Positions 4,412 through 43,945 of a DNA stretch of 57,746 nucleotides are shown piece by piece. The notes beneath the pieces are model-generated. The model worked only from the letters and a program-made list of their open reading frames with translations, ran no database searches and was not told the origin of the DNA. The stretch's first letter is position 1; every line of letters starts with the position of its first letter. Source of the stretch: Burkholderiales bacterium (GTDB lineage: Bacteria > Pseudomonadota > Gammaproteobacteria > Burkholderiales > Ga0077523); NCBI GenBank assembly GCA_040373665.1, contig JBEICA010000001.1:1-57746 (forward strand), given 5' to 3'. Made by a program: the position numbers and the translations under genes.

Positions 4412-4429
4412 GGGGTTCTGCTCGTGGGA

Positions 4430-5293: not shown

Positions 5294-5344
5294 GGCGTGC
5301 CTCTTCCAGCGTGGCGATCGGCCCCGCGCGCGGTGACCGGCGGT

Positions 5345-7231: not shown

Positions 7232-7309
7232 CCCGGCTCCAGCGCGGAGATCTCAGCGGCCTGCGGGATGATGGCGGGGCGCGTGGGGACCCGGTGAGCC
7301 CATGAGCTT

Positions 7310-9488: not shown

Positions 9489-9499
9489 GGTGGTTCCCC

Positions 9500-10354: not shown

Positions 10355-10480
10355 CTGGACATTCCTCGCGTGCACGACCCCACCGGGGCCGGCGCAGTGC
10401 GCCCCGTCGGGTCGTGTCGGTTCGTTCAGGGGCCGGGTCCCGACCTGCAGGCCGGGACACGGGGCAGGGCTGCCGGCGTC

Positions 10481-11263
10481 TCAGGTGGCGGCTTCGCCCT
10501 TGAAGACCTGCGGCAGCAGCTCTCGCATGCGCGCGATGATCTGCATCAGCACGCCGGCCAGGGCGAGGGCGTTCCAGCCCAGCACGACGAAGCCCCAGTG
10601 CAGCGGATGGGAGAAGATCTCCTCGGTCAGCCAGTAGGCGTGGCCCCACTCGTTGTAGCCGAGATTCGGGAGGATGAGGAACGGGCCGACCACCGCGAAC
10701 ACGTGCATCAGGGAGATGCCGCGGCAGAAGGCGGGGATGCGCGTCATGGCGTAGACGAAGCTGCCGACGCCGAACAGCAGGTAGATCGGTATGCAGGCAT
10801 AGAACAGCACGATGTGGCTGGGCGTGATCGGGGTGTCGCGCAGCACGGTCTGGTGCCAGTTGCCATCCCCTTCGGCGAAGAAGCTGCCGGTCCAGTAGAA
10901 GGTGAAGGTGTACACCACGAGCCACATGGTGAGGTAGAAGTAGCGCCGCAGCTCGACCGCCGGGGCGACGTTGTCCATGTCGCGCTCACGGGTGGCGATC
11001 AGGTAGACCTGGACGGCGGCGGCGATGCCGAACAGCACCGGCATCTGGATGTAGAACAACCGCATCCAGACGGCCTCGAAGGCCGGGTCCGTGGAGTCCA
11101 GGCCGACGGTCATGCCGTGGGCCTGCTGGTACATGCGATAACCGACATACACCGCAGAGAGGATCACCAGAGAGACCAGGAACATCGTGTAGTTGAGCCC
11201 GAACTTCTTCGCCTTGGCGGCCGGCGTCGACTGCGCCGGCAGGGCGGCCTGTGCGTTTGCCAT
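10481..11263 (-). CDS. xmoC: Copper membrane monooxygenase subunit C (PmoC/AmoC family)
   Basis: FFAEGDGNWHQTVLRDTPITPSHIVLFY and NEWGHAYWLTEEIFSHPLHWGF, the PmoC metal-site motifs. GAGGAG RBS 8 nt upstream of the ATG. Confidence 0.9.
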   Translation of the reverse strand: MANAQAALPAQSTPAAKAKKFGLNYTMFLVSLVILSAVYVGYRMYQQAHGMTVGLDSTDPAFEAVWMRLFYIQMPVLFGIAAAVQVYLIATRERDMDNVAPAVELRRYFYLTMWLVVYTFTFYWTGSFFAEGDGNWHQTVLRDTPITPSHIVLFYACIPIYLLFGVGSFVYAMTRIPAFCRGISLMHVFAVVGPFLILPNLGYNEWGHAYWLTEEIFSHPLHWGFVVLGWNALALAGVLMQIIARMRELLPQVFKGEAAT

Positions 11264-27761: not shown

Positions 27762-29441
27762 ATGAGTGCCTACCTGCGTCACGAGGCCCTGGGGGAGGCG
27801 TTGCAGGCTCTCGTTGCCTCCCACCCGGGTCTGTTCACGCTCGAGTCGATCGGCCGCAGTCACGAGGGCCGTGACATCTGGCTGGTCACCGCGACCAGCG
27901 TCGCCTCCGGGGCTGCGGGCGACAAACCTGCCCTGTGGGTGGACGGCAACATCCACGCGTCCGAAGTGGCGGGTTCCGCGGCCTGCCTGCACTTCCTCAC
28001 GCAACTGGCCCATGGCTACGGCATCGACGCCGACATCACCCGTGCCCTGGACACGCGTGCCTTCTACGTCTGCCCCCGGCTCAACCCCGACGGCGCCGAA
28101 CTCGCGCTGGCCGACCGGCCGCGCCTGATCCGCTCCTCCACCCGCCCGTATCCCCACGAGGACGAGCCCATCGGAGGCCTGGAGCGCCAGGACATCGATG
28201 GGGACGGACGCATCCTCAGCATGCGCATCGCGGATCCGAACGGACCGTGGAAAGTGTCCGATCAGGACCCGAGGCTGATGGTGCGGCGTGAGCCGACCGA
28301 GGTCGGGGGACGCTACTACCGCGTGCTGCCGGAGGGCCTGATCGACCGCTACGACGGCTTCACCGTGCACATGCGCGCGCGGCGCGAGGGACTGGACCTC
28401 AACCGCAACTACCCTGCCAACTGGCGCCAGGAGCACGAGCAGCAGGGGGCCGGTCCCTATCCTGCCTCCGAGCCGGAGGTGGGGGCCGCGGTGGCCTTCA
28501 TCAGCGCCCACCGCAACATCGTCGGCGGCGTCGCGTTCCACACCTACAGCGGCGTGCTGCTGCGGCCCTATTCGCACAAGGCGGACGATACGCTGCCCCC
28601 TGAGGATCTCTGGACCTACCAGAAGATCGGCGAGCGCGGCACGGCCCTGACGGGCTACCCGAACATCTCGGTGTTCCACGATTTCCGCTACCACCCCAAG
28701 GAAGTCATCACCGGCGCCTTCGACGACTGGATGTACGACCACCTGGGCGTCTTTGCGTGGACGGTCGAGATCTGGAGCCCGCAGCGCGAGGCCGGCATCA
28801 CCGACTACAAGTTCATCGACTGGTATCGCGAACACCCGCTGGAGGACGACCTCAAGCTGCTCGCCTGGAACGACGAGGTGCTGGGCGGCGAGGGTTTCGT
28901 GCGCTGGTATCCGTTCGAACACCCGCAACTGGGGCCGGTGGAACTCGGTGGATGGAACGCCATGACCACCTGGACCAACCCGCCGCCTGCACTGCTCGAG
29001 CGCGAGGTCGACAGGTTTCCGCGCTGGCTGGTGTGGCAGGCGCTGATCTCGCCCCGCCTCGAGTGGCTGTCCACGCGTCTCGAATCGCTCGGCGGGGACG
29101 CGTGGCGGGTCGAGGCGGTGGTGGTCAACACCGGCTGGCTTCCCACCAACGTGACCCGGCGGGCGCGTGACAACCGGCTGGTGCGCGGCGTGGTGGTCGA
29201 GATCGGCCTGCCGGCCGGGGCCACGCTGGTCTCGGGAGAGCCGCGCGTGGATCTGGGGCAGCTCGAGGGCCGTGCCTACAAGGGGCCGTCGCCCTCGTCA
29301 TGGTCGGGCTGGGGCGGTGACGAGACCGACGATCGCGTCCGCACCGAGTGGGTCATCCGCGCCCCGGCTGGCGCCCGCATCGACCTGAGTGCCCGGCACG
29401 ATCGCGCCGGCGTGCTGCGCGCCACGCTCGTCACCGGCTGA
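27762..29441 (+). CDS. M14-family zinc metallocarboxypeptidase
   Basis: GRSHEGRDIWLV...ALWVDGNIHASEVAG (HxxE zinc motif), NPDG, LDLNRNY, GVAFHTYSG. Confidence 0.85.
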   Translation: MSAYLRHEALGEALQALVASHPGLFTLESIGRSHEGRDIWLVTATSVASGAAGDKPALWVDGNIHASEVAGSAACLHFLTQLAHGYGIDADITRALDTRAFYVCPRLNPDGAELALADRPRLIRSSTRPYPHEDEPIGGLERQDIDGDGRILSMRIADPNGPWKVSDQDPRLMVRREPTEVGGRYYRVLPEGLIDRYDGFTVHMRARREGLDLNRNYPANWRQEHEQQGAGPYPASEPEVGAAVAFISAHRNIVGGVAFHTYSGVLLRPYSHKADDTLPPEDLWTYQKIGERGTALTGYPNISVFHDFRYHPKEVITGAFDDWMYDHLGVFAWTVEIWSPQREAGITDYKFIDWYREHPLEDDLKLLAWNDEVLGGEGFVRWYPFEHPQLGPVELGGWNAMTTWTNPPPALLEREVDRFPRWLVWQALISPRLEWLSTRLESLGGDAWRVEAVVVNTGWLPTNVTRRARDNRLVRGVVVEIGLPAGATLVSGEPRVDLGQLEGRAYKGPSPSSWSGWGGDETDDRVRTEWVIRAPAGARIDLSARHDRAGVLRATLVTG

Positions 29442-29470: not shown

Positions 29471-30790
29471 TCAGGCGGCGGCGTGGATGGTCTCCAGCAG
29501 CGGGGCGACATTGCCCTGGGCATCGAAACGCCAGGCGCGTGGCGCCTCCAGGATCTCGAAGCGGTCCGGCCGCGCGCGCACTTCCCCGAGCATGGGCGCC
29601 GACACTTCGATCTCGCCCAGGTGCAGGGTGTTGCGGATGCGAACGATGCGGCAGTCCTCGGGCTTCACCCGCACCACGGTCTTCACCGCGAGGGCGATGG
29701 CATCGTGGTCGTCGTTCATGATCATCGGGATGGTGGCGCCGTCGAGATTCATCGACGTGATGATGTTCGCGTAGGTGGAGGGGATGTCGAGCTCGCGGTA
29801 GAGCCGCATGGTGATGACGTCCGCCGATCCGAGGCCGGTGGCGTTGCCGTGCGTGACCCGTGTCAGGCCGAGCACCACGATCTTCTTCACCATCGGCTTC
29901 GCCGGCCACTTGACGATGCGTCGGTTGCGGCCGGTGATGTTGGGGTCGAAGCCGGCGCCGGAGATGTTCTTGCCCATCTCGTCGATGACCAGCACATCGA
30001 TGTCGTCGAAGAAGATCTGCGGCATGTTGAGCTTGGCCATCGCCTGCAGCGCGGGCTCGCGGGTGGCGAGCAGCTCCGACGGCACGATCTCCACGTGCGC
30101 GGTCTCGTCGTAGGCATTCTCGACGATGCCGACGCCGAAGAGCACGTTGCGGGCGCTGCAGTTGACGGCACACACCTTGGGCAGCAAGTCGGGGAAGGCG
30201 TCCATGCCATGGGTGTGATATGTGGCCGCGCCGACGATCTTGCCGATGCCGATGGCGAGCATCTTGGTCAGGCCGCTCTCGGTCGCACCGCGAAAACCGG
30301 TGTGCGGCTTGATGCGGTTGATCACCACGATGGCGTCGGCCTCTGCCGCATGACGGTCCATGTGGACCGGAGTGCCGTCGTCGAGCTGGCCGACGATGAC
30401 CGTGTCCATGGTCGCCCGGATCGGCACGCCCGTGGCCTCCTCGGTGATGCCGTAGGTCTCGAGCACCTTCTTCTGACCCTCGGCCGTGCCGGCGCCGTGG
30501 CTGCCCATGCAGGGAAACACGAAGGGCTTCGCGCCCAGGGCCTTCAGTTCCTCGATCACCGTGCATGCGATCAGGGCGACGTTGGCGATGCCGCGGCTGC
30601 CGCAGCCGACGGCGATGCTCTGGCCGGGCTTGATGCGGGAGCGCACTTCCGGTCGCGTGAACTCGGCGCGGATGGCGCCGGCGATGTCCTCGAGGCGGGT
30701 GGGGTCGAACTTCTGCCGCACTCGCGCCATGGGAGGCAGCGGCACGTCCAGGCCACCTGCGATGTTCACTTCGATCCGGTCGGGAATCAT
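29471..30790 (-). CDS. LarA-like (DUF2088, lactate-racemase N-terminal domain) protein
   Basis: SIAVGCGSRGIANV...FPCMGSHGAGTAEGQ...INRIKPHTGF...GLTKMLAIGIG resembles the DUF2088 family. Confidence 0.6.
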   Translation of the reverse strand: MIPDRIEVNIAGGLDVPLPPMARVRQKFDPTRLEDIAGAIRAEFTRPEVRSRIKPGQSIAVGCGSRGIANVALIACTVIEELKALGAKPFVFPCMGSHGAGTAEGQKKVLETYGITEEATGVPIRATMDTVIVGQLDDGTPVHMDRHAAEADAIVVINRIKPHTGFRGATESGLTKMLAIGIGKIVGAATYHTHGMDAFPDLLPKVCAVNCSARNVLFGVGIVENAYDETAHVEIVPSELLATREPALQAMAKLNMPQIFFDDIDVLVIDEMGKNISGAGFDPNITGRNRRIVKWPAKPMVKKIVVLGLTRVTHGNATGLGSADVITMRLYRELDIPSTYANIITSMNLDGATIPMIMNDDHDAIALAVKTVVRVKPEDCRIVRIRNTLHLGEIEVSAPMLGEVRARPDRFEILEAPRAWRFDAQGNVAPLLETIHAAA

Positions 30791-30890: not shown

Positions 30891-33125
30891 TCAGCCGTCC
30901 TGCCGGGATCGCAGCCACTCGAGCATGACCTCGGCCGGCTGCGGGGGCGAATACAGGTAGCCCTGCGCGAAGTCGCAGCCGAGGTCCGTAAGACGCAGTG
31001 CCTGGGCGTCGCGTTCGACGCCTTCGGCGACCACCTTCCTGCCCGACCCGGAAGCCAGCCCGATGACCCCGCGGACGATGGACTGGGCCTGGTCGTCCTC
31101 GATCATGTGCTCGATGAAGGAGCGGTCGATCTTGAGTGCCGAGGCGGGCAGGGTCTTGAGGTAGGTGAGGGTGGAGTAGCCGGTGCCGAAATCGTCCAGG
31201 GCAAACTCCACGCCGAAGGCCGTGCAGGCCTCCATGGTCGAGGACACGGCGGCGATGTCGGCCAGGGCCGCGCTTTCCACCACCTCGAACTTCAGCCGGC
31301 CCGGGCTCACGTCGGGGTGTGCGTCCAGGGCGTGGCGGACGGCGGCGGGAAAGCCGGGGTCGTGGAGCCAGCGCGCCGAGACGTTGACGTTGACGCCGAG
31401 CACCACACCGCGGCGCGCCCATCCGGCGCAGTCCGCCAGCGCCGCGCGCAGCACCCAGGCGTCCAGTTCCAGCATCACCGGGTCGTCCTCGATGGCGCCG
31501 AGCCAGTGCGCGGGAGGCAGGGGCCGGTGCCCGGGACGCTGCCAGCGGATCAGGGCTTCCACCGAGCGCACCTGGCCCGAACGCAGTTCCACGATGGGCT
31601 GGTAGTGCAGCACCATGTGACCCTGCTGCAGGGCTGCGGCCACTGCCGACGCCTGTTCCCGCCGCGCCGCGATGCGTCGGTCGTGCTCGGGATTGAAGCG
31701 CACGGCACTGCCGCGGGCGTCGCGCTTGGCCGAGTAGAGCGCATGTTCCGCCTGACGCAGCAGCGCATCGGGATCCCTGTCCTCCGGCCCGACGATGCGC
31801 ACGCCGATGCTGGCCGTGAGTCCGAGGTCGACGCCGGTGGCGAGCCCCAGACCATGGGAGGTCGCCACCCGCAGCAGCTCGAGGATCTGCTCGATCTCGT
31901 CGTCGGAAGACAGGTCCTTGACGAGGACGGCGAAGACGTCGCCGCCGAGACGGGCCACGGTGTCGATCGAGCGAACCGTGGCCTGCAGCCGGCGCGCCAC
32001 CTCGACCAGGATGCGATCGCCAGTCTCCCGGCCCAGGGTGTCGTTGACCGACTTGAACCGGTCGAGGTCGAGCACGCAGATCGCCACGCGCGTGCCGTTA
32101 TCGCGCGATGCCGAGAGCGCCTGCTCCAGCCGGTCCGACAGCAGGGCCCTGTTGGGCAGGTGAGTCAGCGCATCGACGTGGGCGAGGCGGTCCAGCCGCA
32201 GCTGCTGCTCGCGCAGCGCGGTGACGTCCGAGAAGGCGCAGACATACCGCAGCCCCGAACCGTCGAGGGCGTCCACCGCGGTGACGGCGGCGTCGGCAAG
32301 GAACAGGGAGCCGTCCTTGCGGCGCTTCCAGACCTCCCCCTGCCAGGGGCGCCCCGCCCGGATGGAGGCCCACATGGCCGCATCGACGTGCCGATCCTGC
32401 AGGCCCGAGGCGAGCAGCTTGCCGGTGTGGCCGGTCGCCTCCGCGGGGTCGTAGCCGGTGATGCGGGTGAATGCCGGGTTGACCGAGACGATGCGGCCGT
32501 GGGAGTCGGTCACGAAGACGCCTTCGCGCACATGGTCGAAGACCGTCCTGGCCAGAGACAGACCGGCGGTCAGGCGGTGACGCTCGAGGGCCTGGGCGAT
32601 GGCGGCACCGGCCAGCTGCAGCAGCGGGGCGAGTTCAGGCGCCCAGGCGCGGTCGGGTTGCACGAACTCCAGCAACAGCAGGTCGCGATCGGCGCCCGGG
32701 CTGCTCACGCTCACCAGTGCCAGCGCGTGCGACACGCGCGCCTCCAGGAAGCCGCGTTCCGCGGTCGCTGCCGAGGGCAGTCCGGCAATCGTGGTGGCCG
32801 GCGCCGGCTGGTCCGGCGCGAGGCGGGCGAGCCACCAACCGAATGCGCTCAGCGGGGTACCGGCCAATCCTGTCCTGGCCGTGGGCAACCCTGGTTCCGA
32901 CCACTCGTGCACGACGCCGACGTTGCGGCCGCCCGGGGTCGGCCGACACAGGCTCATGCGGTCGGCGCCGCAGGCCTGACCGAGTTCGCCGAGGAACTCC
33001 GCCAGCCGGCCGTCGAGCTCCTGCGGCGCCATCGTGGCAAGCTCGCCCGCGATGCGGGCCACCGACCGCGCGGTCGCGCCGATGTCTGCCGATGGTACGG
33101 GGGGCGTCCCGGCGGCGGTGCTCAC
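30891..33125 (-). CDS. GAF-PAS-GGDEF-EAL signalling protein (c-di-GMP turnover)
   Basis: PAS (SVNPAFTRITGY), GGDEF domain with a GGDVF motif (RLGGDVFAVL), EAL domain (VEALIRW, DDFGTGYSTL, KIDRSF). Confidence 0.85.
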   Translation of the reverse strand: MSTAAGTPPVPSADIGATARSVARIAGELATMAPQELDGRLAEFLGELGQACGADRMSLCRPTPGGRNVGVVHEWSEPGLPTARTGLAGTPLSAFGWWLARLAPDQPAPATTIAGLPSAATAERGFLEARVSHALALVSVSSPGADRDLLLLEFVQPDRAWAPELAPLLQLAGAAIAQALERHRLTAGLSLARTVFDHVREGVFVTDSHGRIVSVNPAFTRITGYDPAEATGHTGKLLASGLQDRHVDAAMWASIRAGRPWQGEVWKRRKDGSLFLADAAVTAVDALDGSGLRYVCAFSDVTALREQQLRLDRLAHVDALTHLPNRALLSDRLEQALSASRDNGTRVAICVLDLDRFKSVNDTLGRETGDRILVEVARRLQATVRSIDTVARLGGDVFAVLVKDLSSDDEIEQILELLRVATSHGLGLATGVDLGLTASIGVRIVGPEDRDPDALLRQAEHALYSAKRDARGSAVRFNPEHDRRIAARREQASAVAAALQQGHMVLHYQPIVELRSGQVRSVEALIRWQRPGHRPLPPAHWLGAIEDDPVMLELDAWVLRAALADCAGWARRGVVLGVNVNVSARWLHDPGFPAAVRHALDAHPDVSPGRLKFEVVESAALADIAAVSSTMEACTAFGVEFALDDFGTGYSTLTYLKTLPASALKIDRSFIEHMIEDDQAQSIVRGVIGLASGSGRKVVAEGVERDAQALRLTDLGCDFAQGYLYSPPQPAEVMLEWLRSRQDG

Positions 33126-33277: not shown

Positions 33278-35542
33278 TCAGCGCCGGAGGCCTCCGTGTC
33301 GCGCCCGCCACTCAGCTGCGCGTGCGGCCAGATGCGCAAGCGCCTCCGACACCTGGTCGATCAGGATCAGGCAGACTTCTCCGGGCAGCAGATGGTCCAG
33401 CGCACGGTCGATGGCGACGAACTCGCCGCGGATCTCCTCGATGTCCGACACCCGGGCGGCATCGCGCATCCCCTGGCGCAGCAGGGCCATGACCTCGCCG
33501 TCCGCGCGCCCGCGCTGGGCGGCGTCCTGGTAGAGCAGCACACGGTCGAAGGCGGCACCGACGATGCGCCCCTGCGCGACGATGTCCTCGTCCCGCCGGT
33601 CCCCGGCGGCGCTGATGACGATGCTGCGGCGGGTCGCCGCCATGCCGTCCAGCCCCTGCACCAGGGCGGCCAGCGCGTCCGGATTGTGGCCGTAGTCGGC
33701 GAACACGGTACCACCGCCGATGTGAAATTCGTTGAAGCGCCCGGGTACGCTCGACGGAGTGGCGTCGAAGTCGGCGAGCGCCGTCTCGATGGCCGTCCAG
33801 GGCACGCCAGCCGCCCAGGCCGCCGCGGTCGCGGCGAGGACGTTCTGCACCTGGAAGCCCAGGATGCCGCCGCGGGTGACCGGGATGGCGCCGAGGGGCA
33901 TGCGCCAGGAGACCGCTTGACCTGCCATGGCGCTCACCCGACCGTCGGCCGCGTGCACGCATCGCCCGCCGCGCGCGCGATGTTCCACCATGCCCGGGAG
34001 CATCGGATCCGCGGCGAACAGGATCACCTCCCCTGGACAGGTCCGTGCCATGGCCGCCACCAGCGGATCGGCGGCGTTCAGCACTGCGGCGCCGGTCGGT
34101 GCCACGTTCGCGACAATCACCTGTTTGACCGCGGCCAGATCCTCCAACCGGTCGATGTGGTCCAGTCCCAGATGGTCACCCGTGCCGATGTTGGTGACCA
34201 CGGCGACACTGCAGCGATCGAATCCCAGACCCTCACGGAGGATGCCGCCGCGCGCTGTTTCGAGAACCGCGGCATCCGCATCCGGGTGAAGCAGCACACT
34301 GCGCGCACTGCGCGGACCGCTGCAGTCGCCGCTGTCGGTCTGCCGCCCGTCGACGAACACGCCGTCGGTGTTGGTCATGCCGACGCGCAGGCCGGACGCC
34401 GCGAACATGGCCGTCGTGAGGCGTACTGTCGTGGTCTTGCCATTGACTCCGGTGACCGCGACGACAGGGATCCTGCCGTCCTCTCTGGGGCCGAAGAGCG
34501 TGCCGAGGATTGCGTCGCCGATCTGACCTGCCCGGTTGGCGGCCGGAGGCAGGTGCATGCGCAGATCCAGGTCCGGATCGACCGCAACGACCGCGCCGCC
34601 CTGGCGCTCGAGCGGCTGGCACAGGGTCTGGCACACGAGGTCGATGCCGCAGACGTCGAGGCCGACCACGCGGGCGGCTTCGACGGCATGCGCCACCACC
34701 TGCGGATGCACGTCCTCCGTGAGATCGCCGGCCGCGCCGCCGGTGGCTGCGACCACTCGACCGCCGGCCACGAGAAGCCGGTGGAGGTCGCCGGGCACCA
34801 GGTCCGGAGTCGGCGTCTCGTCGCCCGGTGCCACGGCCGCATCGACCGCGGCCTCCGGCACGACCTGCCCGGCCCCGGCGGGGCGCGCTTCCCCCGGCAC
34901 CGGGATGCCGGCGGCAGCGAGCAGCCGCCTGCACAGGGCCGCGTCCCGGGTGATGGCCGCGGCGATGGCGCTGGAGCGGTCGCTCGCGGTGCCCCGGATG
35001 CGCCGTTGCCGACTGCCCCAGCCGAGCTGGATCAGGTCGCCGGCCCCGATGGGAAGCGACGGAATGCCCCGCGCCGTCGCGGCCTCGACGATCGCCTTCG
35101 CGCCCGGCCCGGGGCGGCGCTCGGCGGCGAGCGACTTCAGGCGCCCGACGGCGCCCGCGAGGTCGAACGGCGCATCCTGCAGCACCGTCTGGTGGAGCGT
35201 GCAGGCCAGTTCGAAGGCGAGACGACCCACCGCCTCTTCGGTGTACTCGACCACCGAGCGATATACGGCCGGGTCGCTGGTCGGTGCCTCCCGGCAGAAC
35301 CCGACGGGGCATCCGGCCGCCATCTGCAGTCGAAGGGTGGCCTGCGCCAGAAGCAGCGCCAGCGAGCCCGGGACATCCCCTGTCGCGGTGCACCCCTGTC
35401 CGGGCGTCGGAAGACGCGCATCCAGCCGGTGCGTGGTCGTGATGGTCCGCTCGGCCGGGTCCAGGCGCATGATGACTTCCAGCGCGGTGCGCCGGGTCCA
35501 GATGTTGGGGCCCCGGAGGGCGCGTATGCGGGTGATCTCCAT
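33278..35542 (-). CDS. Cyanophycin synthetase paralog with degenerate ATP-grasp (G) domain and intact Mur-ligase-like (M) domain
   Basis: Part of ORF 33278..35647. Start MEITRIRALRGPNIW (CphA N domain). The G domain lacks the KP-DGN-G-GV loop and about 80 aa before DVHP, and EVNAAPG is replaced by AVDPDLD. The M domain is intact: TGVNGKTTT, LETARGGILREGLGFD, GDHLG, NAADP, PGRFN, DYGHNP, GDRRDEDI. Confidence 0.85.
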   Translation of the reverse strand: MEITRIRALRGPNIWTRRTALEVIMRLDPAERTITTTHRLDARLPTPGQGCTATGDVPGSLALLLAQATLRLQMAAGCPVGFCREAPTSDPAVYRSVVEYTEEAVGRLAFELACTLHQTVLQDAPFDLAGAVGRLKSLAAERRPGPGAKAIVEAATARGIPSLPIGAGDLIQLGWGSRQRRIRGTASDRSSAIAAAITRDAALCRRLLAAAGIPVPGEARPAGAGQVVPEAAVDAAVAPGDETPTPDLVPGDLHRLLVAGGRVVAATGGAAGDLTEDVHPQVVAHAVEAARVVGLDVCGIDLVCQTLCQPLERQGGAVVAVDPDLDLRMHLPPAANRAGQIGDAILGTLFGPREDGRIPVVAVTGVNGKTTTVRLTTAMFAASGLRVGMTNTDGVFVDGRQTDSGDCSGPRSARSVLLHPDADAAVLETARGGILREGLGFDRCSVAVVTNIGTGDHLGLDHIDRLEDLAAVKQVIVANVAPTGAAVLNAADPLVAAMARTCPGEVILFAADPMLPGMVEHRARGGRCVHAADGRVSAMAGQAVSWRMPLGAIPVTRGGILGFQVQNVLAATAAAWAAGVPWTAIETALADFDATPSSVPGRFNEFHIGGGTVFADYGHNPDALAALVQGLDGMAATRRSIVISAAGDRRDEDIVAQGRIVGAAFDRVLLYQDAAQRGRADGEVMALLRQGMRDAARVSDIEEIRGEFVAIDRALDHLLPGEVCLILIDQVSEALAHLAARAAEWRARHGGLRR

Positions 35543-36237
35543 CTTCAGGGCCTCCCGGCCTGTGACGTGGCGCAGTCGGATGCGGCGCAGCGCCGCGCAT
35601 CCGCGGGACCGCGTGCCAGGGTGACAACGATGGCGCCGGGCGGGCATCCACCCTGGCGCGTGGCCCGGGGCCTGGCCCGTGAGGCAGGCTGCCGGGGGGC
35701 GGCGCGATGGCGGCCAGTATGCCAGCCGTAAACCTCCCGGCCCGCGGTTGCCCTGGCGGACGCTTCCACCTCGCCGAGACCGCGCATGCCTGGAGATTGC
35801 CTGCCCGGGGTCACGTGCCCGATCATGTTGCCTGATCGCGCGTCGCCGTCCGGGTATTGCAGGGCTGTGTGTGATCGCGCGGCCCTGCCAGGAGGGACCG
35901 GTCCACAGGATCGGGGCCCACGGTTCCAGGGTTTTCGTGTCGGCCCGGGCGTCGGGGCGGCCCCGGTGGGCCCGGCGTTCCCGTCATGCCAGGGTGTGCC
36001 GTGCCGGCGGGCCCGTCGCGGAGCCGCCGGGCGCTGCCTGCCGCGACGGCCGTTGCCCGTGTCAGCCGTCGAGTATCCTGCGAGGACCATGTTCCGGATG
36101 TCATCTGAAAGCGGGGCCCTGCCAGCCCTTGTCCCGTCGACCCGCGAATCAGGCGTCATGACCCTTTCGCGGTGCGCCGGTCGGGCCACGCCAGGTCCGT
36201 GCGACCGTCCGGATGGCCGGATGCGGGGCCCGTCGTC

Positions 36238-38484
36238 GTGAGTGCTCCCGGTTCCGCGCAACGCCCCGACCCCACGCCTTCCGTGTTGCCGCCCCTGGCG
36301 GTGGCGCGGCTCGCGCCCGGGGAACGCATCCTCGCGGTGCTCGAGACCGATCTCGACGCGCGCCTGCGCTATGCAGACGGACTTCTGGTGCTCACCGACC
36401 GACGACTCATGGCGGGCGGCGGCCGCGACCCCGCATGGCAGGACTGGCCCCTGACTCCGGACGGGGCGCTGCGGCTCTTCGAGCGTGCCGGTGTCGCGAG
36501 CCTGGAATTGTCCGAGGGTGGCGAGCGCGTGGCCGCCTGGCGTTTCACGCGCCGTCTGGTCGCGGCGGCCGCGGCCCTCGTCGAGCGTTTCGAGGCGGGG
36601 GGCGCCGGGCGTGTCGTCCCGGCGCCAGAGACCGTGGCGGCACCTGTGGCCACGGCCGAGGCCGCGCAGCCGGCGGCCCGCAGCCTCCTGCGGCTGTGGC
36701 GTTTCGCCCGGCCCTACCGGGGCCGTCTGGTGCTCGGCTTCGTTCTCACTCTTCTCTCGACCGCGGCGACGCTGGTGCCGCCCTACCTGACCATGCCGCT
36801 GATGGACCGGGTCCTGATCCCCTTCGGCACCGGGGTGCCGATCGATCAGGCACTGGTGACGCGCCTGCTCGGTGCCTTGTTCACGGCGGCGCTGCTGGCG
36901 TGGGCCCTCGGCTGGGCGCGCACCTACGTGCTCGCCCTGGTGAGCGAGCGCATCGGCGCCGACCTGCGCACCGCCACCTACGAGCACCTGCTCGGACAGT
37001 CCCTGGAGTACTTCGGCGCGCGCCGCACCGGCGACCTCATGGCGCGCATCGGGGCCGAGACCGACCAGATCTGCCTGTTCCTGTCGCTGCACCTGCTCGA
37101 TTTCGCCACCGACATCCTCATGATCGCGATGACGGCTGTGATCCTGGTGTCGATCGACCCCTCGCTGGCCCTGGTCACGCTGTTGCCGCTGCCCTTCATC
37201 GTCTGGTTGATCCACCTGGTGCGCGACCGCCTGCGCCTCGGTTTCGAGAAGGTGGGGCGCATCTGGGGCGAGGTGAACAACGTGCTGGCCGACACCATCC
37301 CCGGCATCCGGGTGGTGAAGGCCTTCGCCCAGGAACGTCGCGAGGTGGGCCGGTTCCGGGAGGCCAACCGCAGGAATCTCGCGGTGAACGACCGTGTGAA
37401 CCTGTTGTGGGCCCTGTTCTCGCCGTCGGTGACGCTGCTGACCGAGACCGGACTGCTGGTGGTCTGGGCCTTCGGCATCTGGGAGGTGTCGCGCGGGGAG
37501 ATCAGCGTCGGCGTGCTGACCGCCTTCATTGCCTACATCGGCCGGTTCTACACCCGACTCGACTCGATGAGCCGGATCGTGGCACACACCCAGAGGGCGG
37601 CGGCCGGTGCGAAGCGGATCTTCGAGATCCTGGATCACGCCTCCAGCGTCCCGGAGTGCGCGCAGCCGCGGGTGCTGGAGCACGTCGCCGGTCGGATCTC
37701 GCTGCGCGGCGTGAGCTTCTGTCACGGCAACCGCCAGGTGCTGCAGGGCCTCGATCTGGAGATCGAGCCGGGTACGATGATCGGCCTGGTGGGCCCGAGC
37801 GGCGCAGGCAAGAGCACGCTGCTGAATCTGATCTGCCGCTTCTACGACCCCGCCGGGGGCGCGGTGCTGGTCGACGGCTTCGATCTGAGGTCGGTGTCGC
37901 TGTCCTCGTACCGCCGGCACATCGGGCTGGTGCTGCAGGAGCCTTTTCTGTTCTTCGGGACCATCGCGGAGAACATCGCCTACGGCCGGCCGGAGGCGAC
38001 ACGCGAGGAGATCGTGGCCGCGGCGCGGGCGGCGCATGCCCATGAGTTCATCCTGCGGCTGCCGCACGGCTACGATTCCCTGGTCGGCGAGCGCGGCCAG
38101 GCCTTGTCCGGGGGCGAACGCCAGAGGATCTCCATCGCGCGGGCTCTGCTGATCGACCCGCGCATCCTGATCCTGGACGAGGCGACGTCCTCGGTCGACA
38201 CCGAGACCGAGACCGAGATCCAGCGCGCGCTCGAGAATCTGGTTCGGGGACGCACCACGATTGCCGTGGCCCACCGCCTCAGCACCCTGCGCCGGGCGGA
38301 CCGCCTGGTGGTGCTGGACGCCGGGCGCATCGTGGAGACGGGGACACATGAGGTGTTGATGGCGCGGCAGGGACACTACTGGCGACTGGTCCAGGCACAG
38401 GCCCGGAACCGGGAGGATGCGCCGGCGGAGCCGTTCTGGTCCGACGACGCCCTGACCTCGGCGCGCGGCGAGGACCAGACATGA
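36238..38484 (+). CDS. ABC exporter (fused TMD-NBD, MsbA-like) with an approximately 170-190-aa N-terminal extra domain; cyanophycin-locus associated
   Basis: ORF 36172..38484. Six TM helices. Walker A GPSGAGKST, LSGGERQR, Walker B ILILDEATSSVD. The start is uncertain: GTG at 36172, 36199 or 36238. Confidence 0.85.
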   Translation: MSAPGSAQRPDPTPSVLPPLAVARLAPGERILAVLETDLDARLRYADGLLVLTDRRLMAGGGRDPAWQDWPLTPDGALRLFERAGVASLELSEGGERVAAWRFTRRLVAAAAALVERFEAGGAGRVVPAPETVAAPVATAEAAQPAARSLLRLWRFARPYRGRLVLGFVLTLLSTAATLVPPYLTMPLMDRVLIPFGTGVPIDQALVTRLLGALFTAALLAWALGWARTYVLALVSERIGADLRTATYEHLLGQSLEYFGARRTGDLMARIGAETDQICLFLSLHLLDFATDILMIAMTAVILVSIDPSLALVTLLPLPFIVWLIHLVRDRLRLGFEKVGRIWGEVNNVLADTIPGIRVVKAFAQERREVGRFREANRRNLAVNDRVNLLWALFSPSVTLLTETGLLVVWAFGIWEVSRGEISVGVLTAFIAYIGRFYTRLDSMSRIVAHTQRAAAGAKRIFEILDHASSVPECAQPRVLEHVAGRISLRGVSFCHGNRQVLQGLDLEIEPGTMIGLVGPSGAGKSTLLNLICRFYDPAGGAVLVDGFDLRSVSLSSYRRHIGLVLQEPFLFFGTIAENIAYGRPEATREEIVAAARAAHAHEFILRLPHGYDSLVGERGQALSGGERQRISIARALLIDPRILILDEATSSVDTETETEIQRALENLVRGRTTIAVAHRLSTLRRADRLVVLDAGRIVETGTHEVLMARQGHYWRLVQAQARNREDAPAEPFWSDDALTSARGEDQT

Positions 38485-38951
38485 GCGGCGGAGACTGGCG
38501 CCTGACACGATCGCCCTCGGGCCGCCTGCGGCTCGAGACCGCGGCCGGCGAGGTGCACGACGGGGTGGTGGCCGTTCGGGCGTTTCCGGTGAGCGCGCCG
38601 GGGGAGGCGGTGGCACTGGTCGACACGGCCGGGCGTGAACTGGTCTGGATCGGGACGCTCTCCACGCTGCCGCATGCCGGTCGACGAATGGTCGAGGAGG
38701 CGCTGGCCGAGCGCGAGTTCCTGCCCGAGATCCAGAGGCTTGCCGCGATTTCCAGGACGGCCACGCCGAGCGTGTGGTCGGTGGAGACCGACCGCGGCGC
38801 CACGCGCTTCGTCCTGCGCGGTGAAGAGGACGTCCGGCGACTGGGCGGCGGACGCCTGCTCGTGACGGACGAGAGCGGCATCCACTATCTGATCCGGGAC
38901 GAAGCGGCCCTGGACCGGCACAGCCGCAGGCTGCTCGAGCATTTTCTCTGA
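38481..38951 (+). CDS. DUF1854-like small cytoplasmic protein, translationally coupled to the ABC exporter
   Basis: ATGA overlap at 38481-38484. 156 aa, no TM helix, ends ...RRLLEHFL. The DUF1854 assignment is from memory, based on its pairing with this type of ABC exporter. Confidence 0.6.
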   Translation: MSGGDWRLTRSPSGRLRLETAAGEVHDGVVAVRAFPVSAPGEAVALVDTAGRELVWIGTLSTLPHAGRRMVEEALAEREFLPEIQRLAAISRTATPSVWSVETDRGATRFVLRGEEDVRRLGGGRLLVTDESGIHYLIRDEAALDRHSRRLLEHFL

Positions 38952-38990: not shown

Positions 38991-41558
38991 TCAGACGCCA
39001 TCCACCCTGGCCGCGAGGCGGGCGAGACCGGCATCGACGTCGCCCAGCAGCACAACGCAGACGTCGCCGGCCGCCAGAGGCGCGAGCCCGGCGCAGAACC
39101 CGTCCGCCTCGACGGCCCCCAGATCCCCGATACGCGCCCTGCCGCCGTGCTCGACGTCGTCGCGCGCCAGGCCGCTGCGGCCGCGACGCCGCGCCCCGGC
39201 GTCACGGCACAGGAGGATGCGGTCGTAGCGGTCGGCGGCAACGCGGCCGAGCGTGCGCACATCGTGTTCGCGTCGATCTGCGGGGATACCGATGACCAGG
39301 GTCCTGCGCCCCGGCAGGGCCATGGCATCCAGGGTGTCGGTCAGCGCCAGCAGGGCGTCGGCGTTGTGTCCGCGGTCCGCCAGTACCGTCGCTCCGCGAT
39401 GGCGGAACAGGTTGAGCCGGCCCGGCAGCGTCGTGGTGTCCGCCACCGCGGCCGTGAGCGTCACCTCGACGAGGGGCCAGGCGATGCCCAGGGCCCAGGC
39501 CGCGCCGACTGCGGCGAGCACGTTGTCGACCATGAACCCGGCGGCGCCACCCAGCGTGAGCGGGATGCGGGACAGCGGGAGGCGCCAGTGCTCGCGCGGG
39601 CCGTGACAGGCCACCACATGTCCTGCCTCGACCGTCACCAGCCGCTGGCCCCGCGCCCGTTGCTCCGTCATGACCGCAACGGTGCCGTCACGCGCGAAGT
39701 GGATCACGCTGCCGGGGCAGGCCGCACGCATGGCGGCGACGTTCGGATCCGCCGCGTTCAGCACGGCGACGCCGTCGGGTCCCATGTTCTGCACGATGAC
39801 CCGCTTGAGCACGGCAAGCTCCTCGACCGTCTCGAGGTGGTCCAGGCCCAGGTGGTCGCCGCTGCCGACGTTGGTCACGATGGCCACGCCGCAGCGGTCG
39901 AAGCCCAGTCCCTCGCCCAGGATTCCGCCACGCGACACCTCCAGCACCGCGGCGTCCACCTCGGGGTGGGACAGCAGGTCACGGGCGTGTGGCGCGTCGC
40001 TGCAGTCGCCCCGGGCGAGCCAGCGCGACCCGACACGGAGCCCGTCGCTCCCGGCCATACCCACGCGTTGTCCGGTCGCAGCGAGCATGGCCGCCACCAG
40101 ATGGGCCGAGATGGTCTTGCCGTTGGTGCCGGTGATGGCGACCACCGGGATGCGCCCATCGTCGCCCGCCCCGAACAGCAGATCGACAACGGCGCCGCCC
40201 ACGTTGCGCGGATGCCCGTAGGAAGGTGCAAGGTGCATGCGCAGCCCGGGTGCGGCATTGACCTCGACCACGGCCCCGTTCTGCGCCTCCAGGGGCTCGC
40301 CCACCGAGGTGCACACCACGTCCACGCCGCAGATGTCGAGACCGACCGCGGTCGCGGCCTCGACCACGCGTCTGGCCAATTCGGGGTGGACGTCGTCGGT
40401 GACGTCGGTGGCCGTGCCGCCGGTGCTGAGGTTGGCATTGTTGCGCAGCACCACCCGGGCACCCCGTGGCGGCACGTCGTCCGGCCCGTACCCCTGGATG
40501 CGAAGCCGCGCCTCGGCGATCTCGTCAAGACGGATCCGGGTCAGCGGCGTGGCGTGGCCGTCGCCGCGCTTCGGATCCTGGTTGACGCGGTCGACCAGGG
40601 CGCGGATGGTGTGCTCGCCGTCGCCGATCACGTGCGGCGGCTCGCGCCGCGCGGCGGCGATCAGCCGGTTGCCCACGACCAGCAGCCGGTGGTCGTGACC
40701 CGGCACGAAGCGCTCGACGATGATCTCGTGCCCGAACTCCTGCGCAGCCCTGAAGGCGATTGCCAGATGCTCGGGGGTCGACACGTTCACGGTGACGCCC
40801 TTGCCCTGGTTGCCGTCGCGCGGCTTGACCGCGACCGGGCCGCCGAGGGCCTCCATCGCGCACCGGGCCTCCTCCAGGGTGGAAACGCAACGTCCGGCCG
40901 GGACCGGGATCCCGGCGGCGCCGAGCAGGCGCTTGGTGAGTTCCTTGTCCTGGGCGATGGATTCGGCAATGGCGCTGGTGGCGTCGATCTCGGCCGCCTG
41001 GATGCGTTTCTGGCGGCTGCCCCAGCCGAGTTGGACGAGGCTGCCGTCGGTCAGGCGGCGTACGGGCACACCACGATCGGCGGCGGCGCGGACGATGGCG
41101 CCGGTGCTGGGGCCGAGGCTGACGTCCTCGTCGAGGGCCCGGAGGCGGGCCAGCGCGGAGCGCAGGTCGAAGGCGGTGTCGTCGAGGGCGGCGCGGTACA
41201 GCGCCTGCGCGAGGTCCAGCGCCAGACGTCCCACCGCCTCCTCGGCATATTCGACCACCACCCGGTAGGTCCGGGGCTCGATGGTCGGGGTGCAGTGGCT
41301 GAAGGTGACTGCGCTGCCGGCCTCCGACTGCAGCCGCAGGGTGGCGAAGCGCAGTGCCTGGGCGGCGGGCAGCGGCGCCATGTGACCGATGGGGCGGATC
41401 GGTCCGATCTGAGGAAACCGTGAGCGCAGCCGCGCCTCGAAGCCCGGCATGCCATCCAGTGACTCCTCGGCCGGCTCGAGCGACACCACCAGTTCCAGCG
41501 CGGTGTGGCGTCCCCACAGGTTCGGGCCGCGCAGGGCGCGGATGCGATCGATGCGCAT
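38991..41558 (-). CDS. cphA: Cyanophycin synthetase, full-length (N, G and M domains)
   Basis: MRIDRIRALRGPNLW; VAVKPRDGNQGKGV; ANLSTGGTATDVTDDVHP; VVEVNAAPGLRMHL; TGTNGKT; LEVSRGGILGEGLGFD; GDHLG; NAADP; PGRLNLF. The DYGHNP motif is altered to DRGHNA. Confidence 0.9.
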   Translation of the reverse strand: MRIDRIRALRGPNLWGRHTALELVVSLEPAEESLDGMPGFEARLRSRFPQIGPIRPIGHMAPLPAAQALRFATLRLQSEAGSAVTFSHCTPTIEPRTYRVVVEYAEEAVGRLALDLAQALYRAALDDTAFDLRSALARLRALDEDVSLGPSTGAIVRAAADRGVPVRRLTDGSLVQLGWGSRQKRIQAAEIDATSAIAESIAQDKELTKRLLGAAGIPVPAGRCVSTLEEARCAMEALGGPVAVKPRDGNQGKGVTVNVSTPEHLAIAFRAAQEFGHEIIVERFVPGHDHRLLVVGNRLIAAARREPPHVIGDGEHTIRALVDRVNQDPKRGDGHATPLTRIRLDEIAEARLRIQGYGPDDVPPRGARVVLRNNANLSTGGTATDVTDDVHPELARRVVEAATAVGLDICGVDVVCTSVGEPLEAQNGAVVEVNAAPGLRMHLAPSYGHPRNVGGAVVDLLFGAGDDGRIPVVAITGTNGKTISAHLVAAMLAATGQRVGMAGSDGLRVGSRWLARGDCSDAPHARDLLSHPEVDAAVLEVSRGGILGEGLGFDRCGVAIVTNVGSGDHLGLDHLETVEELAVLKRVIVQNMGPDGVAVLNAADPNVAAMRAACPGSVIHFARDGTVAVMTEQRARGQRLVTVEAGHVVACHGPREHWRLPLSRIPLTLGGAAGFMVDNVLAAVGAAWALGIAWPLVEVTLTAAVADTTTLPGRLNLFRHRGATVLADRGHNADALLALTDTLDAMALPGRRTLVIGIPADRREHDVRTLGRVAADRYDRILLCRDAGARRRGRSGLARDDVEHGGRARIGDLGAVEADGFCAGLAPLAAGDVCVVLLGDVDAGLARLAARVDGV

Positions 41559-41572
41559 GATGCAGGGGGCCC

Positions 41573-43753
41573 TCAGGCAGCCGAGGCGAACCCGGTGGCC
41601 GCCGGATCGAAGCTGCCGATGCCGGCGCGGATCAGCTCCGGCGACAACCCGAGCGCCCAGGCAGCCCCGACGGCGGTGAGCAGCGGGATGGTGCCGGCGT
41701 CGAAGGTCGCCCGCGCAAGAGGGAACTCAGGCAGGGCGAGCACGGTATGCAGCCCCTGCGGCGTCGCCACCCGGACGGAGTGGCCGTCGAGAACGACGGC
41801 ACATCCACCCGCGGCGACGTGGGCGGACACCACCGGGTTCTGCATGCCTTGCGCGCTGACATGGATGACTTTGCCCGGGCAGAGCTCCGCCATGCCCGCG
41901 ACCACCTCGTCGTCCGCGTTCAGCACTGCCGTCCCCGTGGGCAGCACCACGTCCACCTGCGTGCGCAACACCTTGAACAACTGCTCCGCATCCTCGATGG
42001 GCTGCTCGGGGATCAGATCCGCGGGGTCCAGGCCTGTGACGATGCCGACCTGGCAGCCGTCGTAGGCGAGCCCCTCCATCGCCATGGTGCGAAGTCCGTT
42101 CTCCACGACGATGGCCTCGAGGCTGCGATTCATCAGCAACCGGCGCGCGGCGTCCCAGCGGGCGCAGTCCCCCTGTTCGATCAGGCGTTGCCCGAGGTAG
42201 AGACCGTCGGCGCAGGCCAGTCCGGTCGACGTGCCTCGCAACTGCAGCAGATGGGTCATCAGACGGGCCACGGTGGTCAGTCCGTGGCTCCCGGCGACAC
42301 CCACCAGCGGGACACGGCCATCGTTCCCCGCCCCGAACAGATGCCCGACGATCGCCTCGCCCACCGGGCGGCCGGCGCCCTTGGCCGGCTGCAGGTGAAC
42401 CTGCAGCCCGGGGCCGGCGTTGACCTCGACGATGGCGCCGCCCTGGTCCTGCAGCGGACGGGTGATGTCCTCGGCCACCACGTCGATCCCGGCGATGTCC
42501 AGCCCCACCACGCGCGCCGCGAGGACTGCCATGGCCGCCACCTCGGGGTGGACGCTGTCGGTGACGTCGAAGCCGACATTGCCGTTGCGCTGGATCAGCA
42601 CCCGTGTGCCGGCGGGCGGCACGGACTCGGGGGTCAGACCCTGGTGCGCGAGTTCCAGCAGGGCGACCGAGTCGACCCGCACCGGATTCAACGGGTAGTC
42701 TTCGGTGCTGCCGCGGCGCGGATCGCTGTTCAACTGGCGTTCGATCAGCTCCAGCACCGTATGCTCGCCGTTGCCCGTCACCTGTGCGGCTTCGCCCTTG
42801 GCTGCGGCCACGAGACGCCCGCCGATCACCAGCAGCCGATGCTCGTCGCCAGGGATCATGCGTTCCACCAGCACGCCCGAGCCTTCGCACGCCGCGACGG
42901 CGTGAGCCGCCTCGATCTCGGATTGCCCGGTGAGGCCGAGCACCACGCCGCGCCCGTGGTTGCCGTCGAGGGGTTTGACCGCCACCGGCACGCCGACGTC
43001 GAGGGCCGCCTGCCACGCGTCGGCGGCGCTCGTCACCTCGCGCCCGTCGGGCACGGGCACACCGCAGCCGGAGAGCAGGCGCTTGGTGAGCTGCTTGTCG
43101 CGGGAGATGCCCTCGGCGATGGCGCTGGTGCGCTCGGTCTCCGCAGTCCAGATCCGGTTCTGCGCCTTGCCGTAACCGAGTTGCACCAGATTCCCGGCAT
43201 TGAGGCGGATATGCGGAATGCCGCGGGCCTGGGCTGCCGTGACGATCGCGCCAGTGCTCGGGCCGAGGCAGAACTCGTCACTCAGTTCGCGCAGGCGCGT
43301 CACGGCTGCACCCACGTCGCAGGGACGGTCGTCCATCGCGGCGAGCACGAGATCGCGTGCGAGAAAGATCGCCTCCCGCGTCACGTCCTCCTGCCAGCAG
43401 GTGACGATGACCTTGTACACGCCGCGCTCGGCCGTGCCGCGGGCGCGTCCGAAGCCGCCCGCCATGCCTGCCAGGGCCTGCAGCTCCAGCGACACGTGCT
43501 CGAGCACGTGACCGGCCCAGGTGCCTTCTTCCAGACGCCGCAGGAAACCGCCACGCTCCTCGTAGCTGCAGCGGTGTTCCACCAGCGTCGGCATCCAGGC
43601 GGTCAGCCGCCCGGGAAACCCCGGGATGCGGTCCGAGGGGAAATCCTCGAGATCCCCGATGTCGATCAGGGCTTCCAGCACGGGGTTGCAGGTCCACATG
43701 TTGGGACCGCGCAAGACCGTGATCTTGCGGATGTCGATGTGTCTTGGTGTCAT
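41573..43753 (-). CDS. Cyanophycin synthetase paralog, CphA2-like: G domain largely intact, M domain vestigial and C-terminally truncated
   Basis: Part of ORF 41573..43804. Start MTPRHIDIRKITVLRGPNMW. VAVKPLDGNHGRGV and IVEVNAGPGLQVHL are present, but ANLSTGGTA is replaced by NGNVGF. The P-loop is GSHGLTT (Lys lost), LETARGG is VENGLRT, and there is no C-terminal Mur-ligase subdomain. Confidence 0.85.
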   Translation of the reverse strand: MTPRHIDIRKITVLRGPNMWTCNPVLEALIDIGDLEDFPSDRIPGFPGRLTAWMPTLVEHRCSYEERGGFLRRLEEGTWAGHVLEHVSLELQALAGMAGGFGRARGTAERGVYKVIVTCWQEDVTREAIFLARDLVLAAMDDRPCDVGAAVTRLRELSDEFCLGPSTGAIVTAAQARGIPHIRLNAGNLVQLGYGKAQNRIWTAETERTSAIAEGISRDKQLTKRLLSGCGVPVPDGREVTSAADAWQAALDVGVPVAVKPLDGNHGRGVVLGLTGQSEIEAAHAVAACEGSGVLVERMIPGDEHRLLVIGGRLVAAAKGEAAQVTGNGEHTVLELIERQLNSDPRRGSTEDYPLNPVRVDSVALLELAHQGLTPESVPPAGTRVLIQRNGNVGFDVTDSVHPEVAAMAVLAARVVGLDIAGIDVVAEDITRPLQDQGGAIVEVNAGPGLQVHLQPAKGAGRPVGEAIVGHLFGAGNDGRVPLVGVAGSHGLTTVARLMTHLLQLRGTSTGLACADGLYLGQRLIEQGDCARWDAARRLLMNRSLEAIVVENGLRTMAMEGLAYDGCQVGIVTGLDPADLIPEQPIEDAEQLFKVLRTQVDVVLPTGTAVLNADDEVVAGMAELCPGKVIHVSAQGMQNPVVSAHVAAGGCAVVLDGHSVRVATPQGLHTVLALPEFPLARATFDAGTIPLLTAVGAAWALGLSPELIRAGIGSFDPAATGFASAA

Positions 43754-43945
43754 TGTCGATCGCCACCGCCTGGCGCACTGGAAGCTCGCGACGGTTGCGA
43801 TCACGGCAAGATTGCTGTCCGGAGACAGTGACCTTGGGGGAGCATACCGACGGACCGGCGATTATGCTGTCGTCGACCTGACACCAACCTTTCAGACGGG
43901 GCGCGGCGGGCGTCCCGGCTCCCCGGGTCAGATGGGCGCTGCAGG

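Follow-up and report, generated by a model that had tools for sequence, protein, structure and literature searches.

The stretch of DNA analysed here (the window) comprises 57,746 nucleotides of contig JBEICA010000001.1 from a Burkholderiales bacterium, has a G+C content of about 70%, and carries a gene for an ATP-binding cassette (ABC) half-transporter followed on the same strand by a gene for a small soluble protein of the DUF1854 family; on both sides of this pair lie genes similar to cphA, the gene for cyanophycin synthetase (Table 1). The two members of the pair meet in an ATGA overlap, read directly from the sequence, in which the stop codon TGA of the transporter gene shares bases with the start codon ATG of the DUF1854 gene, indicating that the translation of both would be coupled. 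The transporter is counted from the first GTG of its reading frame, and its true start would perhaps lie at 36238, a second GTG in frame, because the alignment with the family model NF052233 begins only at residue 45.

Table 1. Features of the window treated in the text, with positions counted from its first nucleotide.
Feature	Position	Strand	Remarks
ABC half-transporter gene	36172-38484	+	770-amino acid (aa) open reading frame counted from the first GTG; predicted PH-like domain, linker, six-helix membrane domain, ATPase domain
N-terminal cytoplasmic domain, predicted PH-like	36304-36606	+	about residues 45-145; AlphaFold2 model and Foldseek
Ala/Pro-rich linker from the PH-like domain to the elbow helix	36607-36681	+	without CPxC-x10-CPxC; orthologue alignment
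Transmembrane domain	36727-37548	+	residues 186-459; PF00664, 141.9 bits
Nucleotide-binding domain	37741-38406	+	PF00005 at residues 524-673; catalytic motifs intact
ATGA stop/start overlap	38481-38484	+	transporter stop and DUF1854 start
DUF1854 protein gene	38481-38951	+	156 aa, soluble; two beta-rich modules with a helix at the end of each
Divergent intergenic region	35648-36171		524 nt; presumed promoter site, between the third cphA-like gene and the ABC gene
cphA, cyanophycin synthetase	38991-41558	-	855 aa; convergent with the DUF1854 gene, 39 nt downstream; NF010623, 1033 bits against a cut-off of 877
cphA'	41573-43804	-	743 aa; upstream of cphA in the same operon; NF010623, 986 bits, profile positions 1-718 of 871
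Third cphA-like gene	33278-35647	-	789 aa; divergent from the ABC gene, 524 nt upstream of it; NF010623, 765 bits in two stretches, below 877
PAS-GGDEF-EAL gene, cyclic di-GMP turnover	30891-33125	-	adjoins the module
LarA_N-like gene	29471-30790		
M14 carboxypeptidase gene	27762-29441	+	559 aa; 6.7 kb from the ABC gene; structure matches of the carboxypeptidase A/B/T type
amoC-amoA-amoB operon	8229-11263	-	
Genes for CopC, CopD with a cytochrome c domain, and PCuAC	3887-7780	-	following the amo operon

Both proteins of the pair fall within curated families. The transporter matches NF052233 (cyanophycin metabolism-associated ABC transporter) with 1241.1 bits against a cut-off of 880, its residues 45-751 aligning with profile positions 25-751 of 766, and the N-terminal domain thus belongs to the family model. 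The small protein matches the complete profile of PF08909 (DUF1854; 162.1 bits, E 7.8e-48, positions 1-130 of 130, Pfam cut-off 26.8 bits) as well as NF052234 (cyanophycin metabolism-associated DUF1854 family protein; 207.3 bits against 150). An initial annotation of this DNA had described an MsbA-like half-transporter, with its membrane and ATPase domains preceded by an extra cytoplasmic domain, joined through the ATGA overlap to a 156-aa soluble protein that was taken for DUF1854 under the accession PF08909, and had stated that the databases name such a pair just as associated with cyanophycin metabolism; the Pfam domains, the profile match, the overlap itself and the names of the two families agree with it on all these points.

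Judged by its sequence, the transporter is a half-transporter with the ABCB-type (type IV) exporter fold, in which ABC_membrane (PF00664) and ABC_tran (PF00005) are accompanied by intact ATPase motifs, all of them canonical: Walker A at residue 541, the Q-loop at 588, LSGGE at 645, ILILDE (Walker B and the glutamate) at 665 and AHR (the H-loop) at 700. The first hydrophobic 19-mer spans residues 186-204, which leaves about 185 residues ahead of the first transmembrane helix. The closest solved relatives are the ABCB-type exporters TM287/288, Sav1866, MsbA and TmrAB (E 1e-88 to 1e-109), whose alignments cover approximately residues 160-745 and start at residue 160-175 or so. Narrower assignments were rejected: that of the MsbA lipid A flippase, because of 453.6 bits against 602 for TIGR02203 and 347.6 against 867 for NF008381; that of NdvA, with 387 bits against a cut-off of 733; and that of the type I secretion transporters of the HlyB/PCAT kind, whose model TIGR01846 gives 414 bits against 725 in an alignment from residue 189 only, and which are also ruled out by the predicted PH-like character of the N-terminal domain and by there being no membrane-fusion or outer-membrane partner conserved nearby.

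The N-terminal domain was modelled with AlphaFold2 over residues 38-152, from an alignment of 50 orthologous N-terminal fragments, and the model, with a predicted local distance difference test (pLDDT) of 91.2 and a predicted template modelling (TM) score of 0.83, consists of seven strands followed by a long C-terminal helix. When it was compared with the Protein Data Bank (PDB) by Foldseek, the PH superfold was overwhelmingly dominant among the top 50 matches listed, with TM scores of 0.5-0.63 among the best-ranked; the matches include OCRL, a bacterial PH protein (3b77), Sin1, Lam6, talin F3 and TFIIH p62. A PH-like fold is predicted with high confidence for this domain, which has no match in Pfam (the PH families included, at E up to 10) and none by sequence in the PDB. 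The guess of PH-like folds in the initial annotation covered both this domain and the small protein; the model favors it for the former, and for DUF1854 no confident match was obtained. A search by sequence for solved relatives of either one gave nothing below E 0.09.

The stretch that connects the N-terminal domain to the elbow helix contains, in 64 of 73 orthologous ABC proteins, the motif CPxC-x10-CPxC, which resembles a zinc ribbon. This motif is missing from the window protein and from a minority of the orthologues (L005, L003, L011-L013, L020, L026, L053 and L062), where an acidic or Ala/Pro-rich linker stands in its place, and the motif is therefore not universal in the family; it has apparently been lost several times and would be dispensable.

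The AlphaFold2 model of DUF1854 (pLDDT 85.6) is composed of two modules of beta-strands and a helix, whose best fold matches, the cryptic polo box of Plk4 and the tandem PH domains of Rtt106, are weak (TM score about 0.2, probability at most 0.6). The protein has no hydrophobic segment. Its homology to the N-terminal domain of the transporter was considered and rejected (profile-profile probability 0.7%), as was a PilZ-like motif for binding cyclic di-GMP, an idea formed by eye and dropped for want of Pfam support. In two natural fusions of the transporter with DUF1854 (P0347, of 913 aa, and P0363, of 866 aa) the DUF1854 part comes directly after the ATPase domain, and since this arrangement places it behind the ATPase C-terminus, it may be argued that DUF1854 acts as a cytoplasmic appendage of the pump. 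The family extends beyond the clade associated with cphA: clustering at 50% identity gives 2280 groups for E up to 1e-3, of which only 188 reach 1e-30. Its beta-proteobacterial clade has two invariant charged motifs, TDRG and GEEDIRR, both missing from the sister clade, and this confinement suggests that a clade-specific ligand might be bound; the residues that both clades keep unchanged are for the most part structural.

A scan for DUF1854 with one genome per species gave 571 loci, of which the best 80, nearly all from beta-proteobacteria or from similar unclassified metagenome bins, were analysed. The transporter gene lies directly upstream of the DUF1854 gene on the same strand in 78 of them, the two exceptions being contig ends, and because it recurs in this way the pairing is not due to chance. 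The junction is tight at 73 of these 78 loci, with an ATGA overlap in 24, another overlap in 16 and a gap of at most 30 nt in 33. Among the 58 loci having enough flank, 56 bring together the pair and two adjacent cphA-like genes, cphA' and cphA, so that the linkage with cphA does extend, as had been supposed, beyond the source genome. Most genera (Cupriavidus, Pandoraea, Achromobacter, Bordetella, Ralstonia) have cphA'-cphA oriented divergently from the pair, Nitrosomonas and Accumulibacter have the four genes all in one direction, and the maintenance of the linkage in two different layouts argues for selection on it. The all-against-all clustering of the open reading frames flanking the 80 loci yielded four conserved families only, namely DUF1854, the ABC transporter, cphA and cphA', with no fifth partner (membrane-fusion protein, outer-membrane factor or peptidase) conserved among them. 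A survey of plasmid and chromid records found 19 with a full-length cphA, and DUF1854 also in two of these only, both from Ralstonia; cphA therefore often occurs where the pair does not, and the presence of the pair distinguishes the beta-proteobacterial cphA'/cphA type.

The window presents a third layout, with cphA'-cphA downstream of the pair and convergent with it, which is unique among the loci surveyed except for its recurrence on L089, a contig from an independent metagenome that encodes an identical DUF1854 protein and has a convergent neighbour of the Mur-ligase type, likewise 39 nt away. On two shorter contigs from other samples (L090 and L091) a convergent gene stands at the same 39-nt spacing, with no domain information on this neighbour. 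The convergent layout is therefore not an assembly artefact. The samples in which the identical DUF1854 sequence is found are JGI 3300042866, SRR9659493 and ERR9973194 (L089-L091), and the organism therefore recurs across environments. Its nearest relative in the genome collection is L005, the betaproteobacterial metagenome-assembled genome ELA176, at most about 66-73% identical. A LarA_N-like gene of the window is 83% identical to positions 267-1574 of L005, where it directly adjoins cphA; in the window it is separated from the module by the third cphA-like gene and the GGDEF-EAL gene, and this difference in placement points to a probable local rearrangement or insertion. Neither in the 524-nt divergent region nor after the DUF1854 gene was any sigma-70-like promoter, terminator, Rfam element or riboswitch found above chance.

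The surroundings had been described initially as a cphA cluster, and cphA does adjoin the pair, with three cphA-like genes in place of one. cphA' is incomplete in the Mur-ligase-like M domain, of which the C-terminal part is missing, its profile match ending at position 718 of 871. The third gene encodes the N domain and an intact, arginine-adding Mur-ligase M domain, its Pfam matches being Cyanophycin_syn, Mur_ligase_M and Mur_ligase_C only, with no recognisable ATP-grasp (aspartate-adding) domain even when the Pfam threshold is relaxed to E 10. In the M domain it shares 50% identity with cphA, and its codon bias is as one would expect of a genuine gene. cphA' and the third gene are accordingly degenerate in opposite ways, the one in the M domain and the other in the ATP-grasp domain. 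No counterpart of the third gene occupies the same position in any of the 80 related loci. The origin of the three copies by recent duplication or through a mobile element was rejected, as the repeats are only paralogous stretches of 60-74% identity. Among the open reading frames scanned across the window none matched the cyanophycinase (peptidase S51) family.

Outside this clade, a distant DUF1854 on a plasmid of Gemmatirosa kalamazoonensis led to a large Gemmatimonadota clade of 2108 proteins, whose ABC transporter, equal in length and likewise extended at the N-terminus, aligns with NF052233 over its full length with 625 bits, below the cut-off of 880. In six of the seven Gemmatimonadota loci with the pair (L081-L088 set) an S9-family peptidase or an alpha/beta-hydrolase lies within a few kb, often directly downstream and convergent, and one locus additionally has an M14 peptidase.

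The link of the pair to cphA, together with the hypothesis of polymer efflux, is already published and has been in print since 2016 (Price et al., 10.1101/072470): Acidovorax 3H11 and Cupriavidus basilensis 4G11 both show cofitness of DUF1854, the ABC transporter, cphA and cphA', with phenotypes in motility and stress. The presence of an exporter in a cphA locus, called unexplained in the initial annotation, had thus been remarked there. In the literature searched, DUF1854 is named by Price et al. alone, and no later paper settling its function was found. Cyanophycinase occurs in 2.8% of 903 cphA1-bearing beta-proteobacterial genomes, which its authors called unanticipated for a storage polymer (Sharon et al. 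2023, PMC10206079), and no process of cyanophycin export is known according to Sharon et al. (PMC9974463); the ABC pair goes unmentioned in both of these papers. A wastewater study describes clusters of two cphA copies and an ABC transporter, without cphB (PMC10687191), and in a Variovorax transcriptome cyanophycin synthetase is induced 27-fold in biofilm (PMC7494200).

The proposal put forward here, which we hold to be about evenly poised between right and wrong, is that the pump exports the product of CphA and CphA' over the inner membrane, with the two cytoplasmic accessory parts, DUF1854 and the PH-like domain, recognising or gating the cargo; which way the pump works, what its substrate is and how long, and what the accessory parts do are what we infer in it. 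The ABC transporter and DUF1854 would constitute one machine whose working may be imagined as follows: (i) the transporter would be a homodimeric, ATP-driven exporter of the ABCB type, with a PH-like domain on each subunit; (ii) DUF1854 would be made in step with the pump and would work at its ATPase end; (iii) the cargo would be a cyanophycin-like peptide of aspartate and arginine, probably short or soluble; (iv) capture or gating of this substrate at the cytoplasmic face would fall to the PH-like domain and DUF1854; (v) and finally, the cargo would function in the envelope or extracellularly, not as a storage granule. The position of the PH-like domain ahead of the first transmembrane helix, the lack of hydrophobic segments in DUF1854 and the natural fusions together argue that the accessory parts are cytoplasmic, and the shared mutant phenotypes (10.1101/072470) fit a product that needs to be exported in order to work, and not detoxification. 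Also in favour of the proposal are the matches of both proteins with the curated models, the exporter-type membrane domain with its complete ATPase motifs, the linkage of the four genes, the scarcity of cyanophycinase in beta-proteobacteria with cphA1 (PMC10206079), and the lack of a cyanophycinase match among the reading frames scanned in the window.

Several considerations weigh against this export of a CphA product. None of the seven Gemmatimonadota loci with the pair has a cphA-like gene within about 6-12 kb, and the Nitrosomonas-like loci L018 and L021 are without cphA within 10 kb; because these relatives have the pair and no cphA, the pair is not intrinsically tied to cyanophycin, and it is the older unit, whose tie to cphA is the property of one clade. 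The cphA linkage set out in the initial annotation consequently stands within the beta-proteobacterial clade and fails in its Gemmatimonadota sister clade and in a few Nitrosomonas-like loci. To our knowledge no exported polymer has ever been detected, and transport past the periplasm goes unexplained, because the conserved neighbours include neither a periplasmic adaptor nor an outer-membrane component. Classical cyanophycin, moreover, is large and insoluble, an awkward cargo for such a pump; some transporters of the exporter-type fold import; and neither fold nor sequence searches gave DUF1854 a confident structural match that would hint at ligand binding.

The pump might instead be a general exporter whose cytoplasmic substrate is a different one, for instance a peptide or an envelope precursor, and its tie to cphA might be secondary, by way of supply or removal for synthesis or of co-regulation. 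The Gemmatimonadota proteins, which keep the architecture of N-terminal extension, ABC transporter and DUF1854 (as the 625 bits with NF052233 attest) in loci where cphA is nearby in 0 of 7, and which often have S9-family peptidases or hydrolases for neighbours, would suit this explanation, as would L018 and L021 and the mostly structural nature of the residues invariant in both clades. We nevertheless think it unlikely, though not negligible: the four beta-proteobacterial genes have been kept together through rearrangements and give common mutant phenotypes, the motifs TDRG and GEEDIRR are particular to that clade, and the S9 neighbours, which come from closely related contigs, are convergent and not co-transcribed. 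Whatever the substrate, the accessory domains might be mainly regulatory, sensing arginine, aspartate or a nucleotide second messenger and switching the pump. DUF1854 sits at the ATPase C-terminus in the fusions, like the regulatory domains of MalK, MetN and ModC, and genes for cyclic di-GMP turnover adjoin the module in the window and in L021 and lie near several other loci; these genes are, however, common in general and unconserved across the 80 loci, and neither domain matches a known ligand-sensing domain, and a mainly regulatory role seems to us decidedly unlikely.

The fold of the membrane domain also occurs in importers, YbtPQ, IrtAB and Rv1819c among them, and the pump might supply CphA' with beta-Asp-Arg dipeptides or primer peptides, taken up from outside, for polymerisation. 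It is in keeping with this that CphA' is without the C-terminal part of its M domain, as is the dipeptide polymerase CphA2 (PMC9974463), and the peptidase neighbours of the sister clade would be appropriate to the uptake of peptides. Import is, however, very improbable, because the mutant phenotypes include motility and general stress, beyond the use of nutrients, because the 80 loci have neither a binding protein nor an outer-membrane receptor as a conserved neighbour, and because a storage polymer would still require the cyanophycinase that this clade lacks (PMC10206079). As for a merely coincidental adjacency of functionally unrelated genes, just the few loci without cphA speak for it, and it is effectively refuted by the full module in 56 of 58 loci, from many genera and in three gene orders, and by the published cofitness.

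The export of the CphA product, if accepted, may be carried further, in a reading that we advance tentatively and with the balance inclining to doubt: the beta-proteobacterial "cyanophycin" would be a secreted or envelope poly(amino acid), the four genes would be a self-contained unit of synthesis and export, providing the first known route of cyanophycin export, the PH-like domain and DUF1854 would form a new cytoplasmic adaptor for polymer recognition, and in the Gemmatimonadota without cphA this adaptor would serve for another peptide cargo. The puzzle to which this responds is that hundreds of beta-proteobacterial genomes have cyanophycin synthetases and 2.8% have the degrading enzyme (PMC10206079), in the same clade whose synthetases are tied to a pump. 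If true, the polymer would be a component of the envelope or the matrix and not a nitrogen store, the cphA genes of wastewater and soil metagenomes would have to be read differently, and a possible route to secreted cyanophycin would be offered to biotechnology. New here are the predicted PH-like fold of the N-terminal domain, the zinc-ribbon-like linker that is mostly present and yet dispensable, the quantification of a four-gene module without other partners, the sister clade without cphA, and also the fusions of DUF1854 with the ATPase domain in some species; the PH-like domain, the dispensable linker, the fusions and the sister clade make the export hypothesis directly testable.

Among the other neighbours in the window, the M14 carboxypeptidase was considered as CphZ, the cyanophycin dipeptide hydrolase, and rejected, since it is of the A/B/T type and not AstE/AspA-like and is found in none of the 80 related loci; its catalytic domain begins at residue 13, which leaves no room for a signal peptide. 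Genes related to cyclic di-GMP, such as the PAS-GGDEF-EAL gene of the window, recur at L021 (GGDEF, 4681-5904) and in the vicinity of several other loci, without being a conserved feature of the 80. Farther away, the products of the amoC-amoA-amoB operon pass the NCBI cut-offs for bacterial ammonia monooxygenase (AmoA 295.9 against 290, AmoB 512 against 336, AmoC 348 against 319 bits). The G+C content of this region is about 67-70%, and that of cultured Nitrosomonas and Nitrosospira is far below it; the operon may encode a divergent copper monooxygenase or belong to an unusual ammonia oxidiser.

With respect to known systems, the window pair is like the families NF052233, NF052234 and PF08909 in scores, architecture, the order of the ABC and DUF1854 genes and the neighbourhood of cphA. 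The gene pair is thus already in curated families, and what is specific to the window is the transporter without the zinc-ribbon-like linker, the convergent cphA'-cphA and the third, degenerate cphA-like gene upstream. The same four-gene module as in the window is present in C. basilensis 4G11 (RR42_RS04420) and Acidovorax sp. 3H11, and in C. basilensis OR16 (L004) DUF1854 is 57% and the ABC transporter 67% identical to those of the window. The module of Price et al. was described by mutant fitness only; the N-terminal structure, the substrate and the relatives without cphA are not covered there.

The six-helix membrane domain and the ATPase core of the window transporter are shared with MsbA, Sav1866, TM287/288 and TmrAB, from which the PH-like N-terminal domain and the DUF1854 partner are absent. 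HlyB and PCAT likewise have an extra cytoplasmic domain at the N-terminus of an exporter, which is C39 or C39-like and binds polypeptide cargo; its fold, however, is papain-like, and that predicted for the window transporter is PH-like. For the role proposed for DUF1854 an analogy, and an analogy only, may be drawn with the O-antigen exporter Wzm/Wzt, in which a beta-rich domain at the C-terminus of the ATPase recognises a cytoplasmic polymer before its export, although that system has another transporter fold and a lipid-linked glycan for cargo, and shows no match in sequence or structure to the window pair. As to the cargo, NdvA/ChvA, the exporter of cyclic beta-glucan, is a lone half-transporter of the same class that moves a hydrophilic oligomer or polymer to the periplasm, and in PgsBCA, the system of poly-gamma-glutamate, a poly(amino acid) made by an amide ligase is exported, but without an ABC transporter; unlike the window pair, both of them are without PH-like or DUF1854 parts.

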